Origin: an uncultured Pseudoalteromonadaceae bacterium
GTDB taxonomy: Bacteria; Pseudomonadota; Gammaproteobacteria; Enterobacterales; Alteromonadaceae
Length of the DNA: 64,000 nucleotides
Direction of reading: 5' to 3'
Assembly: GCA_964640795.1 (NCBI GenBank)
Contig: CAZXIN010000003.1
Location: forward strand, 60,262-124,261
Shown here: positions 29,106 to 35,071 of the stretch, in pieces
Position numbering within the stretch: position 1 is the first letter of the stretch
Layout: each line of letters starts with the position of its first letter
The notes under the pieces: generated by a model
What the model was told of the DNA's origin: nothing
Databases searched by the model: none
Seen by the model: only the letters and a program-made list of their open reading frames with translations
Made by a program: the position numbers and the translations under genes

Positions 29106-30437
29106 GTGTTAGCGACTACAACTTTTGAAAGTTTGGAGGGCGTTGTGGCTGAAAAGCATAATCATAGAATCATCGAATCGAAAGAGCGGCGACAAGCTAT
29201 CAAACTTGGCTTGAAGGCGGGTGCCGCCGCAAGCTTGGCTACAGTTGCCCCATTTGCTATCGGTAAAGGGAAGCCTAAGCTCCGTATATTGGGAACTCAT
29301 GTCACGTTACAAGACGAGCTGTGTCAAAGGGCGATGCAAGATCTCGGTATCGACCTTGTTTATGAGCCTAAAGGGAGTGCTGCGGTATTACAAAAAGCGT
29401 TTGTGTCTCCGGACACCTTTGATTTGTTTGAGCAATGGTCAAACAGTATTCGCGTCCTATTGCGCTCCGGTGCGATTCAACCTATCGACAAAAAACGACT
29501 AACCTATTGGGATGAAATAAACCCATTAACTAAAACCGGTAAGGTAACACCAGAAGCTAATATAGGTGATGGAGACGCACCTTATAAAATACTGCATATT
29601 CAAGATGACAATCAATTAGGCACACAACATACCGATAAACTGAGCTTCTTACCTTATGTACACAATGTTGATTCTTTTGGCTACAACACCAACGTCATAG
29701 AAAAAGGTGTCCCTTATGAGACTGAAAGCTGGGGATGGTTACTAGACCCTAAATATGCAGGGAAAGTCGGCATTGTAAACGCACCTTCTATCGGCATATT
29801 TGACTTAGCATTAGCGGCTCAAGCTAGAGGGCTAGTCACGTTCAAAAATATAGGTGCGATGTCGAAGAGCGAACTTGATCAGCTCTTCCGAGTATTAGTC
29901 GATTTAAAGCAGAAGAATCACTTTAGTGGTTTTTGGACATCGGTCCCTGAATCTGTAAGGTTTATGAAAACGAATCGAGTGGTTATCGAAAGTATGTTTT
30001 CGCCTGCCGTTTCGGCATTAAATGGCGAGAACATTCCGGTCACCTTTGCAGCGCCTAAAGAGGGCTATAGAGGTTGGCATGGTGTAATGTGCTTGTCATC
30101 GCGGACGCAAGGACGTGTAAAAGATGTGGCATATGAATACATGAATTGGTGGCTTTCTGGGTGGCCAGGGGCTTTTATTGCTCGCCAAGGTTATTACATA
30201 TCTAATCCCAATCGCTCAAAGCAATATCTCAGTGAGGCCGAATGGAACTATTGGTATCAGGGATTACCAGCCTCAGAAACATTAGTCGGGACAGATGGCA
30301 ATGTGTCTGTTCAAAAAGGCGAAGTGCGAACGGGCGGCAGTTACGAGAAACGGTTTAGTAATGTCGCTGTATGGAATACAGTTATGCCGACATACGATTA
30401 CAGTTTGCAAAAATGGTATGAATTTATTAGTTCTTAA
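29106..30437 (+). CDS. PotD/PotF-like extracellular solute-binding protein with twin-arginine signal (likely start GTG 29145)
   Basis: ERRQAIK + hydrophobic stretch; PYVHNVDSFGYN, SWGWLLDP, FAAPKEGYRGW; GGAGG RBS before 29145. Confidence 0.85.
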   Translation: MLATTTFESLEGVVAEKHNHRIIESKERRQAIKLGLKAGAAASLATVAPFAIGKGKPKLRILGTHVTLQDELCQRAMQDLGIDLVYEPKGSAAVLQKAFVSPDTFDLFEQWSNSIRVLLRSGAIQPIDKKRLTYWDEINPLTKTGKVTPEANIGDGDAPYKILHIQDDNQLGTQHTDKLSFLPYVHNVDSFGYNTNVIEKGVPYETESWGWLLDPKYAGKVGIVNAPSIGIFDLALAAQARGLVTFKNIGAMSKSELDQLFRVLVDLKQKNHFSGFWTSVPESVRFMKTNRVVIESMFSPAVSALNGENIPVTFAAPKEGYRGWHGVMCLSSRTQGRVKDVAYEYMNWWLSGWPGAFIARQGYYISNPNRSKQYLSEAEWNYWYQGLPASETLVGTDGNVSVQKGEVRTGGSYEKRFSNVAVWNTVMPTYDYSLQKWYEFISS

Positions 30438-30534
30438 GCAACTAGCTGAAAATTATCTTGACGTAGAATGACTATGCCTTCGATAATCTCCATTGCCTAA
30501 AGAGCGTTTAAATCCAACTGAATGATGCCAATTT

Positions 30535-33264
30535 ATGCTTATTCAGCTATACCCAATATTGAGGCGTTTAATGCTCACATCTCTGAAGTCACAAGTGACA
30601 GTTTTCCTTGTATTACTGATCACGTTGTTGTCCACGCAACTTGTGCTAACTCGAATAGATCAAGTGTCGCTTATCGAAGATCTCCAGACCGCAGAACGTG
30701 TCTTTATTGATGCTGGTCTTGTTAGGGAGCTTGAAAGAGATGTGTATGACTTGCAGAGAAATGTACTGATCTATAAAGAAACTGCGAGTGAGTCTGTTGA
30801 AGTGCGTTTTTCCGTTTTGATGGACTCTATTAACGAAAAAATTGAGCAACTTAGACTGCCACTGAATGAGCAGGATGAAGGCGCTGACAGGTTAGCCATG
30901 TTGGGCTCGATGCAATCTCACTTAGTTGATTATAAAGAGAATTTTAACAGCGTGGTTGACGGCCTAGAACAGCGATCAAAGTTGTTTGATGAAGGCTTGT
31001 TAGTCGAACTAGACGCGTTGATCAATTTTATAGGTAATATTGATGAGCAGATGGAAACGGGAGATAACGCATCTACCTTGGCTATTCAATACCATGTCGC
31101 CCGAGCAGAAAATGCAGCTTTTCAATATTTACTTAACCCTAGCATTGATCATTTCGAAGAGTTTGAAAAACAAATTCAATATACTGAACAGGTGTTAAGT
31201 AAGCTCCCTGCCTCAAGTGTTTATACTGACAATATTAGAAATTCATTAAAGCAAGTCGATGCGCACTTCGTTCAATTGACTCTGATCACGCGAGGTTACT
31301 TGTATTTAGTAAACGTGGTCATGGCAGGTTCGGCAAATGAGTTTCTGTTCTTAACGTCTCAATTGGCAGAAAGTGTCGTTGAGCAATCAGATATTACAAA
31401 TCAGCAAGTGCTACGCAATATTAATAGCGCTCAGTTTAGGAGTAATATTTTTGCTGCGTTTGAAATATTACTTGTCGTTGCGACAGCAATATTTATGGGG
31501 GTGCGGGTTATCCTTCCTATTAGTTCTATGTCTGAAATTTTTGAGAACCTGATTAAGGGCAAAGACTTTGTGCAAACCCCTGCATTTTCTCGAAGTGATG
31601 AAATGCGACGTTTGTTAGAAGCAGCGAAGGTTTTTAATGACAAAAATATCCAAACTCATGCCTTGCTTGAAGATGCGACTAAACTTAACGCGCAGCAAGA
31701 AGAATTAAATAAGCAGCTTGAGCATTCCAAAATGAATGCGGAGAAAGCAGCAAATTCAAAAAGTATTTTTCTAGCTAATATGAGCCATGAAATTCGTACG
31801 CCTATGAATGGTATTGTTGGTCTGGTGGATTTGGCTTTACGTGAAGAGATACCTAAGAAGCTTCATGACTATCTGAGTAAAGTGGCAGCATCTAGCCAAA
31901 TACTTATGAGCATTATTAACGATATTCTTGATTTCTCTAAAATAGAAGCAGGCAAGATGGATATTGAAACGGTTAGTTTCTCTTTGCATTCTATCTTTGA
32001 CAATGTGCTATCGATAGTGACACTCAAAGCGCGAGAAAAAAACCTAAATGTTAAATTACAAGTACAACCATCACTACCCGGTAACCTGATTGGTGATCCG
32101 TTGCGTATCACGCAGGTTGTTCTTAATTTGACTAATAATGCTGTCAAGTTTACGCGTAATGGCCATGTTCGTATTCGGTTCTATAGTGATTATGCCAAAG
32201 ATAGTAGTGACATGATGCTCTACGTGGATGTGCATGATACAGGGATAGGAATGAGTGAAGCACAGCAAGAAAGGGTGTTTGAGTCGTTTGAACAAGCTGA
32301 CGGCTCGACGAGTCGAGAATATGGTGGAACAGGGCTTGGGCTTGCCATAGTCAAGCAGCTTACCGAGTTGATGGGCGGCACTGTTACTATTAAATCAGAG
32401 CCTAACAAAGGAAGCTCATTCACCGTTAGCTTTGCGATGAAAGTTTTTAAACAGCAACAAGGGCTGTTGGAGTTTGAAGACAAGCTAGCACCGACTCTAT
32501 TCTATGTTACTGATAATGCGTTAATGTGCGATGATTACCTCGTCTCTTTTGCAAAGGCTGTGGTACCAGTATCTCTCAATGAGTTGCCCAACCTGAAAGA
32601 CCGAGTACAGACAGATGATATCGTACTCATTGATGCATTCTCTGTGGCTTATATTAAAAAACATGAGGCAGCCATTGAAGAGCTTGTCTCAAGTAAACTT
32701 CATATAGGCTTTGTGACCGATACACAGCCAACGCAATTACCCATGCAGTTAAAAACACGTTGGGGTTTTCCTGTTCTTAGTCAACCATTTGCACCGAACC
32801 AATTGATTGAGTTTTTTGAGATGACATTGGGGCAGACGCCAGAAGATAAAATCCCAGAAACGTCAATTGTCGAAGGGCTGGACTCGGATAAAAAGTTTGT
32901 TGGGCATGCATTATTGGTTGAAGATAATAGTATTAATCAAGTAGTGGCAGGGGAAATGCTCACTTCACTAGGTATGACATATGAAATTGCAGAAGATGGT
33001 CGACAAGCAGTTACAAAGATTACTAATTCGCCACATTACGATATTGTGTTAATGGATATACAAATGCCTATTATGGATGGTTATGAAGCCACCTCTATTA
33101 TCCGGGAATTAGGTTACAAGACTATTCCTATTTGTGGCTTGTCGGCTAACGCAATGAGAAAAGACAAGGAAAAAGCTGAAGAAGTCGGCATGAATGATTA
33201 TCTGATCAAGCCGCTTAAGCGAATTAAACTTATTGAAGTACTAGATAAGTACTTCTCGCTTTAG
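30535..33264 (+). CDS. Hybrid sensor histidine kinase/response regulator
   Basis: Two TMs around a helical periplasmic domain, HAMP-like linker, [38 protein letters not shown], receiver LVEDN...LMDIQMP...KP. Confidence 0.93.
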
Positions 33265-33391: not shown

Positions 33392-35071
33392 TTATTTAGT
33401 GAACACTTTTTTACCTGCAATCCATGTTTGTAGTACTTCTGGCTGCCACAGTTGTTCATTTGGAATGGTAAATATGTCTTTGTCTATCAGAATAAAATCA
33501 GCCCACTTTCCTTTGGTTAAACCACCCAGTACCTTATCCTGATGCCCTGCGTAGGCAGCGTCAAGAGTAAAAGATTTGAAGGCTTGATAAACAGTCATTT
33601 TCTCTTCGGGCAGCCAACCTTGTTTTGGTTGATTTTCACGATCTTGGCGTGTCACCGCAGCATGTAAACCAAAGAACGGGTTGGCTAACTCGACAGGGAA
33701 GTCAGAACCAGATGCAACTCGAGAGCCTTGGTTTAAGAATGTTTGCCAAGCATAGGCGCCACGCAAGCGTTCTTCACCTAGTCGGTCACCAGCCATGTTT
33801 TTATCACTGGTAGCATGGGTGGGTTGCATAGCGGGGACAATACCGATTTGTTTAAAACGAGGAATATCAGAAGGGTTAATGATTTGCGCATGCTCAACGC
33901 GATTGCGGAGATTCTTACCCCCCAGCCTATTGATAGTATCTTCAAATTGATCCAGTGCTAACCGGTTTGCTCGGTCGCCTATGGCGTGGAAATTTAGCTG
34001 AAAATTGCTGCCGATAACGGTATCAAATAATGACTTTAAGTCTTGTTGCTTAGTCACCAATAAACCAACATTATGAGGATCGTCATGGTATGGCGCTAAT
34101 AAAGCAGCGCCTCTGCTCCCTAGTGCTCCGTCACCATAAGCTTTTACACTGCGAATGGACAAAAAGTCACCTTTATCTTTTATGTGGCCTTCTTTCAGCA
34201 TGTTTCTAAGTTCAGGATCCGTTGCAGCCAGCATGGCGTAGATTCTGATCGGTAGCTTATTTTGTTCTGTTTTCGCTCGATAAAAGTCATAAACTTGCTT
34301 ACTGATGCCTGCGTCATGCGTGCTGGTGACACCCAAAGACAACAAATGCTTTCCCGCCGTATTGAGCGATAAAGCCAAAGTTGACTCTGACGTTTCTGGG
34401 ATAAGTTTGTCTACTAATGATGTTGCATTGTCGACCAACACACCGGTTGGTTCTCCGTTGGCGTCACGAATAATTAAGCCACCGGGAGGATCAAGCGTAT
34501 CTTTAGTGATCCCAGCAAGCTCAAGCGCTTTGGTATTGACCCATGTTGCATGACTGTCTACGCGAGCTAACATGACAGGTTTGTTGCTCACATACTCATC
34601 AAGATCTTTGGCTGTTGGAAATTCTTTTCCTGGCCATAGAACTTGGTTCCAGCCCCGTCCCATTATAATAGCCAAGTCAGGGTTAGCATCAGCGTATTGC
34701 TTAACTTGCTTCGCTGCATCTTTTGCCGAACCTAAGCTACGAACATCCACTTGCAGTAAATTTTCGCCTAATCGCAATACGTGGCCATGTGAATCTATTA
34801 AACCGGGGAGTAACGTTTTCTGACCGCCATCAATGACTGTGGCGTTGGGGTATTGCTCAATCAGCAAGTTATCGCCAATTGAAAGGACCTTACCCTCTTC
34901 AAAAACTAAGGTACTGAACTGAATGAATTCGCCAGCATTGCCGAAGGTATATCCTCTGACATTAGATATTGCTGTTGGCTCAGCAAATGTTGCAGTGCTG
35001 GCGATTGAGAGGCAAAGTGAGATCGCAAGTTTTTTAAAATTGATTTTTTTCATTGCTAATTTCATAGGCAT
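33392..35071 (-). CDS. YtcJ-like amidohydrolase (exported)
   Basis: Signal peptide; LPGLIDSHGH, RVDSHATWVN, DGALGSRGAAL, FHAIGDRAN, RVEHAQ, GSDFPV. Confidence 0.92.
   Translation of the reverse strand: MPMKLAMKKINFKKLAISLCLSIASTATFAEPTAISNVRGYTFGNAGEFIQFSTLVFEEGKVLSIGDNLLIEQYPNATVIDGGQKTLLPGLIDSHGHVLRLGENLLQVDVRSLGSAKDAAKQVKQYADANPDLAIIMGRGWNQVLWPGKEFPTAKDLDEYVSNKPVMLARVDSHATWVNTKALELAGITKDTLDPPGGLIIRDANGEPTGVLVDNATSLVDKLIPETSESTLALSLNTAGKHLLSLGVTSTHDAGISKQVYDFYRAKTEQNKLPIRIYAMLAATDPELRNMLKEGHIKDKGDFLSIRSVKAYGDGALGSRGAALLAPYHDDPHNVGLLVTKQQDLKSLFDTVIGSNFQLNFHAIGDRANRLALDQFEDTINRLGGKNLRNRVEHAQIINPSDIPRFKQIGIVPAMQPTHATSDKNMAGDRLGEERLRGAYAWQTFLNQGSRVASGSDFPVELANPFFGLHAAVTRQDRENQPKQGWLPEEKMTVYQAFKSFTLDAAYAGHQDKVLGGLTKGKWADFILIDKDIFTIPNEQLWQPEVLQTWIAGKKVFTK

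Follow-up and report, generated by a model that had tools for sequence, protein, structure and literature searches.

What does a PotD-like solute-binding protein (SBP) with a predicted Tat signal do directly in front of a hybrid histidine kinase gene, when no ABC transporter is found nearby? This question is raised by a locus in the 64-kb window analyzed here (C3:60262-124261), which an earlier note had read as a LuxPQ-like sensory pair for a polyamine-like or unknown ligand. The note had located a twin-arginine SBP 97 bp upstream of the kinase, and both open reading frames (ORFs) were recovered at the coordinates it gave, the SBP at 29106-30437 (443 aa) and the kinase at 30535-33264 (909 aa), both on the forward strand. 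Our analysis makes it reasonably probable that the pair is a two-gene, binding-protein-dependent sensor. The locus is organized as follows:

29135..29140, + strand: Shine-Dalgarno-like GGAGGG, 4 nt before GTG 29145, from reading the sequence
29145..29264, + strand: probable Tat signal peptide of the SBP with the motif ERRQAIK; export predicted
29265..30437, + strand: mature SBP, predicted PotD/PotF-like fold (cluster-D type), from Pfam, AlphaFold2, and Foldseek
30438..30534, + strand: 97-bp intergenic spacer with a sigma-70-like match, TTGACG-18-GATAAT, at 30458-30487
30535..30657, + strand: kinase N-terminus and membrane helix 1 (residues ~19-41), from hydropathy; AlphaFold2 helix 17-83
30658..31440, + strand: periplasmic all-helical sensor domain (residues ~42-302), predicted HBM/TorS-like fold, from AlphaFold2 and Foldseek
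31441..31674, + strand: membrane helix 2 (residues ~303-325) and HAMP-like linker, from hydropathy, AlphaFold2, and the family profile
31759..32436, + strand: kinase core, HisKA and HATPase_c, from Pfam
32455..32904, + strand: poorly conserved linker (residues 641-790), 19% mean pairwise identity
32911..33264, + strand: C-terminal receiver (residues 793-903; D841 at 33055-33057), from Pfam Response_reg, and stop codon

For the SBP, GTG at 29145 is a likelier start codon than the ORF start at 29106; it yields a protein of 430 aa, and the homologues have 420-433 aa. The spacer of 97 bp compares with a median of ~18 bp in relatives, where the two genes are separated by short gaps or overlap. Promoter-like sites were no more abundant over the whole region than in shuffled sequence, and TTGACG-18-GATAAT is a pattern match only.

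The kinase lies directly 3' of the SBP on the same strand in all 80 testable related loci (75 with complete kinases and five with kinases cut by a contig end; one further locus was untestable). These loci come from Alteromonadaceae, Colwellia, Pseudoalteromonas, Psychrosphaera, Bermanella/Oleispira, Cellvibrionaceae, Kangiellaceae, and others, and thus cover several families and orders. No gene family is common to the flanks of the pair in the 80 loci, and because the kinase follows the SBP everywhere while the surroundings change, the pairing is not due to chance. Among 401 genomes sampled from the phylum, 26 gave a match to the sensor domain, which in every one of them lies immediately downstream of an orthologous SBP (26/26). 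The neighborhood conservation that the earlier note had wished to see checked is therefore evident. The pair occurs in ~5% of the sampled genomes of the host order and in ~9% of a Pseudomonadota sample, with carriers including Alteromonas, Paraglaciecola, Colwellia, Pseudoalteromonas, Oleispira, and Bermanella.

Adjacency of sbp and kinase genes does not always guarantee a functional link: AgtB/PA0602 failed to bind the sensor domain of AgtS, nor did PA4985 interact with that of AruS (PMC11113362). With these precedents, and with a promoter-like match in the spacer that could give the kinase its own transcript, the two genes might be neighbors by chance or for the sake of a common promoter. 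The preserved order and strand in the 80 loci and a sensor domain never found without its SBP make such a meaningless adjacency highly improbable.

We next consider transport. A whole-genome scan placed no ABC_tran match in the window; the sole match on the contig is >110 kb from the pair, and the contig carries no BPD_transp_1 permease, confirming that permease and ATPase genes are missing nearby, as the earlier note had stated. ABC genes flank the pair in none of the 80 related loci, and the genome encodes neither a paralogue of the SBP nor a canonical PotD/PotF. The SBP could nevertheless be an orphan transport protein serving a distant ABC importer, with the kinase co-regulated, or it could serve both functions, as in CBP-ChiS and GltB-GtrS; dual-use SBPs are known (PMC8050422). 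Indeed, paralogues 34-44% identical to the SBP are encoded in ABC operons together with a TOBE_2-containing ATPase and two BPD_transp_1 permeases, and for one importer of the genome (C22:79614-83484), which is cut off by the end of its contig, no SBP is visible. We rejected this importer as the remote partner because its permease is missing from four complete genomes that carry the pair. Of about six BPD_transp_1 systems in the genome, at least four have a candidate SBP-like ORF nearby, as judged by reading ORFs rather than by a Pfam scan. Moreover, a clear score gap divides the orthologue clade from the transport paralogues, orthologues scoring >650 bits and paralogues <455 bits. Taken together, a role in transport appears improbable to us.

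The earlier note had conceded that homologues usually sitting in ABC operons would speak against a sensory pair. This situation holds only for the distant paralogues and not for the orthologue clade, as expected if the sensor SBP descends from a duplicated transport SBP; such an origin would fit the precedent of NspS and PotD. In the wider family, one SBP lies near a HAMP-PAS-SpoIIE protein with one gene between them, and others have a GntR regulator as neighbor or as fusion partner, suggesting that these SBPs were repeatedly used as sensors. The ABC-operon paralogues are accompanied by GntR/FCD regulators, Asp/Glu/hydantoin racemase, SDRs, and hydantoinase A/B, a context that hints at cyclic amides or amino-acid-derived compounds as their substrates. 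We did not transfer these substrates to the sensor clade because of the 34-44% identity and the different pocket residues. Public records name the SBP homologues putative spermidine/putrescine transport SBP or ABC transporter SBP, labels that are probably wrong for the orthologue clade. Our literature search found no study of this SBP/kinase family.

The SBP was assigned to SBP_bac_6/8 by Pfam match, the 443-aa ORF clearing the SBP_bac_6 cut-off weakly (E 3.9e-7), and its best sequence match in the PDB is PotF (E 1e-8, partial). Its AlphaFold2 model is of moderate confidence (pLDDT 72.6, pTM 0.75), several invariant loops being modeled with low confidence. The best Foldseek matches of this model are VcPotD1, PotF, SpuD, and PotD (E 1e-12 to 1e-9, 14-17% identity), and the top 35 PDB matches are all of the PotD/PotF type or close relatives (PotD, PotF, SpuD/E, YdcS, Atu4243), with TM-scores of 0.61-0.72 normalized to the target. 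The model thus has the class II, cluster-D periplasmic binding fold. Compared with PotF, the SBP has an insertion of ~40 aa and a C-terminal extension of ~50 aa.

In polyamine SBPs, W37, D39, E185, D247, and D278 are each conserved to at least 96% (PMC8666671). In the alignment with PotF, these five residues correspond to T51, V53, G217, A288, and G313 of the SBP; T51, V53, G217, and G313 are invariant in 42 orthologues and A288 is conserved to at least 90%. The replacement of D278 by Gly is backed by the HMMER alignment. Three aromatic positions are kept (PotF W244 as F285, F276 as W311, and Y314 as Y351). Judged from the aligned residues, the polyamine pocket is lost. Because W37 and the four conserved carboxylates are replaced, a polyamine is an unlikely ligand, which speaks against the polyamine-like signal that the earlier note had named as one option. 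Likewise, the SBP scores 29.8 bits with the NCBIfam equivalog model for PotF (cut-off 636) and 29.6 bits with that for YdcS (cut-off 725).

The N-terminus of the SBP reads ...ESKERRQAIKLGLKAGAAASLATVAPFAIG/KGK, in which ERRQAIK is followed by LGLKAGAAASLATVAPFAIG; the hydrophobic region ends with APFAIG, and the putative cleavage site precedes KGK. The twin arginines R28-R29 (numbering of the 443-aa ORF) are encoded at 29187-29192. With this motif, a moderately hydrophobic region, and TatC encoded in the genome (238.7 bits), the SBP has the features predicted of a Tat substrate. All 81 orthologues carry [RK]R at the twin-arginine position, ~47 RR and ~34 KR; since ~42% have KR instead of RR, the use of Tat is not certain family-wide. 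The Tat signal itself is also present in the ABC-operon relatives with 34-44% identity and hence is not specific for signaling. The Tat clue of the earlier note thus holds as to the signal but not as a mark of a signaling role.

What might the SBP face in the periplasm? The kinase is a hybrid histidine kinase with two membrane helices predicted by hydropathy (~19-41 and 303-325), and AlphaFold2 gave an all-helical model for residues 1-400 with pLDDT 90.4. The top Foldseek matches of the sensor domain are the ligand-binding domain of McpS (2yfa/2yfb) and the TorS sensor (3i9y, 3o1h-j), the match with 3i9y having E 4e-4 and a TM-score to target of 0.61. At the level of the modeled fold, the domain is therefore a double four-helix bundle of the helical bimodular (HBM) type, while Pfam and profile comparisons detected no sequence-level link to TorS, HBM, or any Pfam family. 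Mean pairwise identity is 33% in this fast-evolving domain, except for three near-invariant islands (residues 66-81, 126-140, and 245-273), which are a candidate docking surface for the SBP. The McpS domain was crystallized with malate and with succinate according to the PDB titles; HBM domains can thus bind ligands directly, and for this reason the islands could also form a pocket in which the kinase itself binds a ligand.

This leads to the rival reading that the kinase senses directly through its HBM-like domain, as McpS does, and that the SBP is an accessory acting as a negative regulator, chaperone, scavenger, or monitored enzyme or cofactor protein. Tat export, the invariant cleft His/Cys residues, and the extreme conservation would in this case point to catalysis or to a metal or cofactor bound by the SBP rather than to simple ligand delivery. 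The SBP is far more conserved than its partner, with a mean pairwise identity of 75% over 66 orthologues spanning families and orders versus 53% for the kinase core. H52, H173, and C316 are invariant in the orthologues and H312 is nearly so (at least 90%), H52 and H312 aligning to, or adjoining, pocket positions of PotF. Tat signals usually mark proteins that acquire their fold or a cofactor before leaving the cytoplasm; signal-less cytoplasmic paralogues exist, two of which adjoin CobW-type metallochaperone GTPases; and HBM domains bind small acids directly (PDB 2yfa, 2yfb). However, the wider family, the CobW-adjacent paralogues included, does not preserve H52, H312, and C316, and the ABC-operon paralogues resemble ordinary transport SBPs although they carry Tat signals as well. 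Pfam and NCBIfam profile scans recognized no cofactor-binding motif or enzyme family in the SBP. On balance, we regard direct sensing by the kinase as possible but unlikely.

A bolder variant, for which we see slim odds, is that the SBP is a Tat-exported catalytic or cofactor- or metal-bearing protein whose metal load, redox state, or substrate turnover is read by the HBM kinase. The identity of 75% across orders, the cleft His/Cys residues, and the cytoplasmic paralogues beside CobW or fused to GntR are signs in this direction, and, if true, the input logic would be one not described for SBP-kinase pairs.

The disparity between the SBP (75% identity) and the sensor domain (33%) is not what a simple co-evolving interface predicts. 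A mirror-tree comparison of the two was uninformative, as their pairwise divergences correlate weakly (Spearman 0.30) because the divergence of the SBP is compressed.

For the binding-protein-dependent sensor that we favor, we propose the following course. The SBP would reach the periplasm, probably folded, through the Tat pathway and there bind a small molecule other than a canonical polyamine. Loaded or empty, it would dock on the HBM/TorS-like domain of the dimeric hybrid kinase, and docking would shift the balance between kinase and phosphatase activity via membrane helix 2 and the HAMP linker. A phosphoryl group would then move inside the kinase from H418 to D841, be handed to an HPt protein whose gene lies outside this locus, and end on a response regulator.

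The cytoplasmic part of the kinase is consistent with this relay. HisKA (residues 409-473, Pfam E 7e-19) contains the phospho-acceptor H418, encoded at 31786-31788, and is followed by HATPase_c (520-634, E 4.7e-29) and the receiver (793-903, Response_reg E 1.8e-22) with the acceptor D841. The sequence thus has the hallmarks of a hybrid histidine kinase phosphorelay, and Pfam found no HPt domain in cis, so that a remote HPt and regulator are needed. The genome has eight HPt matches, one of them a stand-alone ORF of 200 aa (C23:43555-44157), which agrees with the remote HPt and regulator put forward in the earlier note. Some orthologous kinases, such as those of loci L051 and L022, have an extra receiver and an HPt, confirming the logic of a phosphorelay. 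The Pfam model for HAMP did not match the window kinase; the profile of the kinase family, over its positions 311-350, matches Af1503 HAMP domains of solved structure (E 1e-5), and several orthologous kinases show a weak Pfam HAMP match below the cut-off. Hydropathy, AlphaFold2, Pfam, and the family profile therefore agree with the architecture first noted for this protein: two membrane helices, a helical periplasmic domain, a HAMP-like linker, and a receiver.

Residues 641-790, with a mean pairwise identity of 19%, may possibly be a degenerate receiver; the second receiver matched by Pfam in L051 and L022, whose position was not in the output, is placed there by inference. A pseudo-receiver in the window kinase itself was dismissed, its pattern being suggestive but without a Pfam match even at E up to 10.

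A 2021 review tabulated seven SBP-dependent sensor kinase systems, and TorS is the one HBM-like kinase sensor known to be SBP-driven (PMC8050422). TorT-TorS (TMAO; E. coli, Vibrio parahaemolyticus; PDB 3O1H, 3O1I, 3O1J, 3I9Y, 3I9W) is the closest system in mechanism, likewise combining a dedicated, transporter-free SBP with a two-helix hybrid kinase that has a periplasmic HBM-like double four-helix bundle of ~260 aa. The differences are considerable: TorT belongs to Peripla_BP_1 (ribose-binding-protein-like), whereas the window SBP has a PotD/PotF-like fold; TorS has its own HPt; no torR or torCAD genes lie near the window pair; and the cytoplasmic part of the window kinase scores 327 bits with the TorS model, below the equivalog cut-off of 676.5. 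LuxP-LuxQ (AI-2, Vibrio) also joins a dedicated SBP to a hybrid kinase without HPt, LuxQ signaling via the separate HPt protein LuxU. However, LuxQ has a tandem PAS (dCache-like) sensor (PF09308) instead of an all-helical one, LuxP is a Peripla_BP_4 protein, for which the window SBP has no match, and the window kinase core reaches 308 bits with the LuxQ model (cut-off 1200). Since the sensor domain folds like the HBM domains of McpS and TorS, TorT-TorS is the better analogue; the idea of a LuxPQ-like pair is retained as a dedicated, transporter-free module but not as to the sensor fold.

For the SBP, the nearest likeness is NspS of Vibrio cholerae, a PotD-family protein (SBP_bac_8) that left its ABC transporter and is encoded beside MbaA, the protein it controls (PMC8050422; PMC8079147). 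MbaA, however, is a GGDEF-EAL enzyme with a dCache-like periplasmic domain, unlike the HisKA-HATPase_c-receiver kinase with its HBM domain, and NspS binds norspermidine and spermidine, whereas the window SBP has lost W37 and the four pocket carboxylates. In the literature consulted, a Tat signal and extreme conservation are not described for NspS. PotD and PotF of ABC importers share the overall fold with the window SBP, which differs by its Tat-type signal, its extra insertions, and the lack of PotABC-type permease and ATPase genes in the window and the 80 loci.

Kinase activation by SBPs is an accepted principle with few known systems, to which this pair adds an uncharacterized, sharply delimited family in which the SBP has the PotD fold and its partner is a hybrid kinase with a TorS-like HBM sensor. 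That the SBP sequence has hardly changed suggests a single conserved signal; as the carriers include many well-known marine heterotrophs, the identity of this signal would reveal which cue they follow in seawater or on algae. How a class II SBP docks on an HBM domain could also be studied cleanly in this family, with no transporter to confound the result.

A conserved output gene beside the pair was sought by Pfam among 135 downstream flanking proteins and dismissed, as these share only lineage-specific synteny, and GGDEF in 4 of the 135 is not convincing. The lineage-specific neighbors include valyl-tRNA synthetase and HolC in Alteromonas, cyanate lyase with a formate/nitrite transporter, and AraC. 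Ten downstream genes scanned singly encode a DEAD helicase, an FAD oxidoreductase, an Fe-ADH, an M19 peptidase, and others.

Both open reading frames (ORFs) sit where the earlier note had placed them when it read them as a LuxPQ-like sensory pair for a polyamine-like or otherwise unspecified ligand:

Window 29106-30437 (+): solute-binding protein (SBP) gene, ORF of 443 aa
Window 30535-33264 (+): hybrid histidine kinase gene, 909 aa

A scan with one genome per species gave 390 SBP relatives, from which the 80 best loci (68-80% identity) were examined, with all their flanking ORFs clustered. The kinase follows the SBP on the same strand in 75 loci, at a median distance of about 18 bp, several of the gene pairs overlapping. 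Five of the six remaining loci have the kinase cut by the contig end, and the contig of the sixth stops 143 bp past the SBP. The order SBP then kinase is thereby kept in 80/80 testable loci. The loci with the pair belong to Alteromonadaceae, Colwelliaceae, Pseudoalteromonas, Psychrosphaera, Bermanella, Oleispira, Oleiphilaceae, Cellvibrionaceae, Kangiellaceae and others, and their other genes have nothing in common beyond lineage-local synteny. A reverse search with the periplasmic domain of the kinase (263 aa) detected it in 26 of the 401 Pseudomonadota genomes sampled. In each of these 26 the orthologous SBP is encoded as well, and each match sits immediately downstream of its gene. The module is single-copy in each genome having it, and it occurs in 15 of 301 genomes of the order (14 with orthologue-level matches) and in 36 of the 401 genomes of the phylum sample. 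The pairing of SBP and kinase is real and specific.

Convergent to the kinase, an Amidohydro_3 protein (559-570 aa) is encoded both in the window (33392-35071, -) and in the closest relative, Alteromonadaceae bacterium M269 (L001:12286-13995, -). Since its family does not figure among the flanking families most often seen across the wider set, the arrangement probably reflects local synteny rather than a target gene.

The absence of a transporter near the pair was likewise confirmed: neither an ABC ATPase nor a BPD_transp_1 permease is encoded across the 64-kb window, and the contig's sole ABC_tran match stands over 110 kb away from the two genes. The only importer of the genome without a visible SBP lies at a contig end (C22:79614-83484). 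It is absent from four complete pair-bearing genomes, which makes a remote ABC partner unlikely. A canonical PotD/PotF was not found by tblastn with E. coli PotF in the 5.3-Mb assembly (95% complete), where the best match was the window's own SBP gene (E 0.004). The genome has 11 BPD_transp_1 matches, few for its size.

The upstream ORF passes the Pfam SBP_bac_6 cut-off weakly (E 3.9e-7), and the NCBIfam PotF and YdcS models stay below threshold (about 30 bits, where 636 and 725 are required). By sequence, the PDB entry closest to this ORF is E. coli PotF (E 1e-8), matched over two short stretches. The homologues are 420-433 aa long, their alignment begins at about residue 17-28, and GGAGGG stands 4 nt ahead of a GTG at 29145; this GTG is therefore the likelier start, giving a predicted product of 430 aa. 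The N-terminus reads ERRQAIK, followed by a mildly hydrophobic stretch closing in APFAIG/KGK. At the twin-arginine position, [RK]R occurs in 81/81 collected orthologues (RR in about 47, KR in about 34), in each case followed by a similar hydrophobic region that ends in APYVFA[KR] or APFAIGK, and the genome encodes TatC. As a sequence feature, the predicted Tat signal thus has good support.

The earlier note had given this signal a part in the sensory reading, a point that the wider family does not sustain. When 1.84 billion cluster representatives were searched exhaustively, 117 proteins had E <1e-30, and in the genome searches orthologues (>650 bits) separated cleanly from paralogues (<455 bits). 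Transport paralogues at 34-44% identity are located in ABC operons, and many carry textbook Tat motifs, e.g. SRRTILKG and TRRDFLKK; the Tat signal is therefore ancestral and nothing specific to signalling. The 123 neighbour proteins at 16 paralogue loci included 15 BPD_transp_1 permeases, 10 ABC_tran ATPases, nine TOBE_2 matches, 10 GntR/FCD regulators and six Asp/Glu/hydantoin racemases. Homologues sitting usually in ABC operons had been named as a finding against a sensory pair; such operons were seen only around distant paralogues, as expected if the sensor SBP derived from a transport SBP.

Some paralogues are cytoplasmic and have no signal peptide. P0131 (L082:6001-8262, metagenome contig; 753 aa) joins an N-terminal GntR-FCD regulator to a C-terminal SBP-like domain that is 38% identical to the window's SBP and lacks a signal peptide, and in it the periplasmic-binding fold of the family is predicted to serve as a cytoplasmic effector domain. 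Its neighbours are hydantoinase A/B, M20 peptidase, Zn-ADH and polysaccharide-deacetylase genes. The signal-less paralogue P0128 (42% identity; L086:1709-3924, L087:3086-5301) overlaps by 4 bp with a GntR gene standing upstream of an ABC importer. At L086, two SDR genes and a protein of 407 aa come after the importer; the 407-aa protein has no Pfam match and may be the exported SBP of the same family. L121 has a similar arrangement. P0126 (L081:624-2824), a cytoplasmic paralogue of 43% identity, lies directly downstream of a CobW/COG0523 GTPase with a 4-bp overlap, and this adjacency, also seen in 2/16 paralogue loci, hints at metal involvement in that branch. The Tat-bearing paralogue P0134 (38% identity) is followed by a 239-aa protein and an 803-aa HAMP-PAS-SpoIIE membrane protein, which would give the family a second sensory pairing of another kind. 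The GntR fusion and adjacency, together with the SpoIIE pairing, suggest that the binding module was recruited repeatedly as a sensor.

The structural model of the SBP is of moderate quality (pLDDT 72.6, pTM 0.75). Its leading structure matches are VcPotD1, PotF, SpuD/E and PotD at 14-17% identity, and as regards the fold the PotD-like description therefore holds. The pocket tells against the polyamine-like ligand that had been proposed. In polyamine SBPs, W37 is 100% conserved and D39, E185, D247 and D278 are each conserved to at least 96%, in the numbering of the PotF pocket defined by Kröger et al. (PMC8666671). We aligned PotF with the SBP family, using a PotF sequence that agrees with all 13 residues checked at their published numbers.

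Pocket residues of PotF and their counterparts in the SBP family (430-aa numbering)
W37: T51
S38: H52
D39: V53
E185: G217
D247: A288
D278: G313
W244: F285, aromatic kept
F276: W311, aromatic kept
Y314: Y351, kept

The replacing residues are invariant or nearly so among 42 orthologues, and HMMER alignments independently show F276 to W and D278 to G. W37 and all four amine-holding carboxylates are therefore lost from the family, and the ligand is probably not a polyamine. Public annotation as a putative spermidine/putrescine or ABC transporter SBP is probably wrong for the orthologue clade.

The kinase comprises HisKA (409-473, with H418), HATPase_c (520-634) and a receiver (793-903, with D841); an HPt domain was not found in it. 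Two hydrophobic helices lie at about 19-41 and 303-325, and the family profile matches solved HAMP domains directly after the second. An AlphaFold2 model of residues 1-400, built with 61 orthologues, is helical throughout (pLDDT 90.4). Among PDB structures the model is most like the ligand-binding domain of McpS (2yfa, 2yfb) and the sensor domain of TorS (3i9y, 3o1h-j, 3i9w), with probability 1.0 and TM-scores to target of 0.44-0.65. As modelled, the periplasmic domain is a helical bimodular (HBM) fold. At the sequence level it matches neither a Pfam family nor TorS, and the tandem PAS fold of LuxQ is absent among its structure matches.

Mean pairwise identity by region over 66 orthologous pairs
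Mature SBP: 75% (minimum 67%)
Kinase receiver: 59%
Kinase HAMP and catalytic core: 53%
Kinase periplasmic domain: 33%
Kinase linker 641-790: 19%

It is unusual for an accessory binding protein to be more tightly constrained than its kinase's catalytic core. This conservation, the Tat signal, and the invariant H52, H173 and C316 with a nearly invariant H312 leave room for an SBP that carries a cofactor or metal or is catalytic, its state being read by the kinase, albeit as a rather improbable reading. Less improbable, and the most serious rival, is direct sensing by the kinase with some other role for the SBP-like protein, which we still consider unlikely. Three near-invariant islands of the sensor domain (residues 66-81, 126-140 and 245-273) are a candidate docking surface and could equally form a direct ligand pocket. 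Adjacency alone can mislead, to judge by P. aeruginosa, where SBPs encoded near AgtS and AruS, from genes described as ABC-transporter genes, do not bind those sensor domains (PMC11113362); by contrast, the window pair has no transporter and its coupling is universal.

The best-supported reading, which we hold to be reasonably probable, is a TorT-TorS-like system in which an SBP drives the phosphorelay of an HBM kinase. The exported SBP would bind a small molecule and dock on the dimeric kinase at its HBM domain, and the signal would reach the kinase core by way of membrane helix 2 and the HAMP linker. From H418, phosphate would then move to D841, to a separately encoded HPt and to a response regulator. 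This relay logic is supported by the second receiver and HPt found in cis in orthologues such as L051 and L022 and by eight HPt matches in the genome, one of which is a stand-alone ORF.

The likeness to TorT-TorS is one of working mode and not of membership, since the SBP is of another structural class and the kinase falls below the curated TorS cut-off and lacks the HPt domain. With NspS-MbaA the pair shares a PotD-fold SBP released from its transporter, whereas its signalling partner and SBP pocket are different. The LuxPQ analogy is reduced to an HPt-less hybrid kinase. The observation of the earlier note was thus borne out and its interpretation in part, the pair being best read, on the models, as a sensor kinase that depends on an SBP, a PotD fold being here combined with an HBM domain. 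Full-text literature searches found no study of this SBP-kinase family. SBP-dependent sensing as a principle is already well known; the universal coupling, wide marine distribution and unexplained conservation raise the importance of the pair.

A stand-alone 200-aa HPt ORF at C23:43555-44157, followed by ORFs of 227 and 302 aa, is a candidate partner for HPt-less hybrid kinases such as this one. The ATPase-to-receiver stretch (residues 641-790, window 32455-32904), the least conserved part of the kinase, has no Pfam match in the window protein; its beta-alpha-like pattern (LFYVTDN, DIVLIDA, HIGFVTD, VLSQPF) suggests a degenerate receiver. The 97-bp spacer between the two genes is unusually long, and in it a sigma-70-like pattern match, TTGACG-18-GATAAT (10/12; window 30458-30487), could be an internal kinase promoter in this genome.
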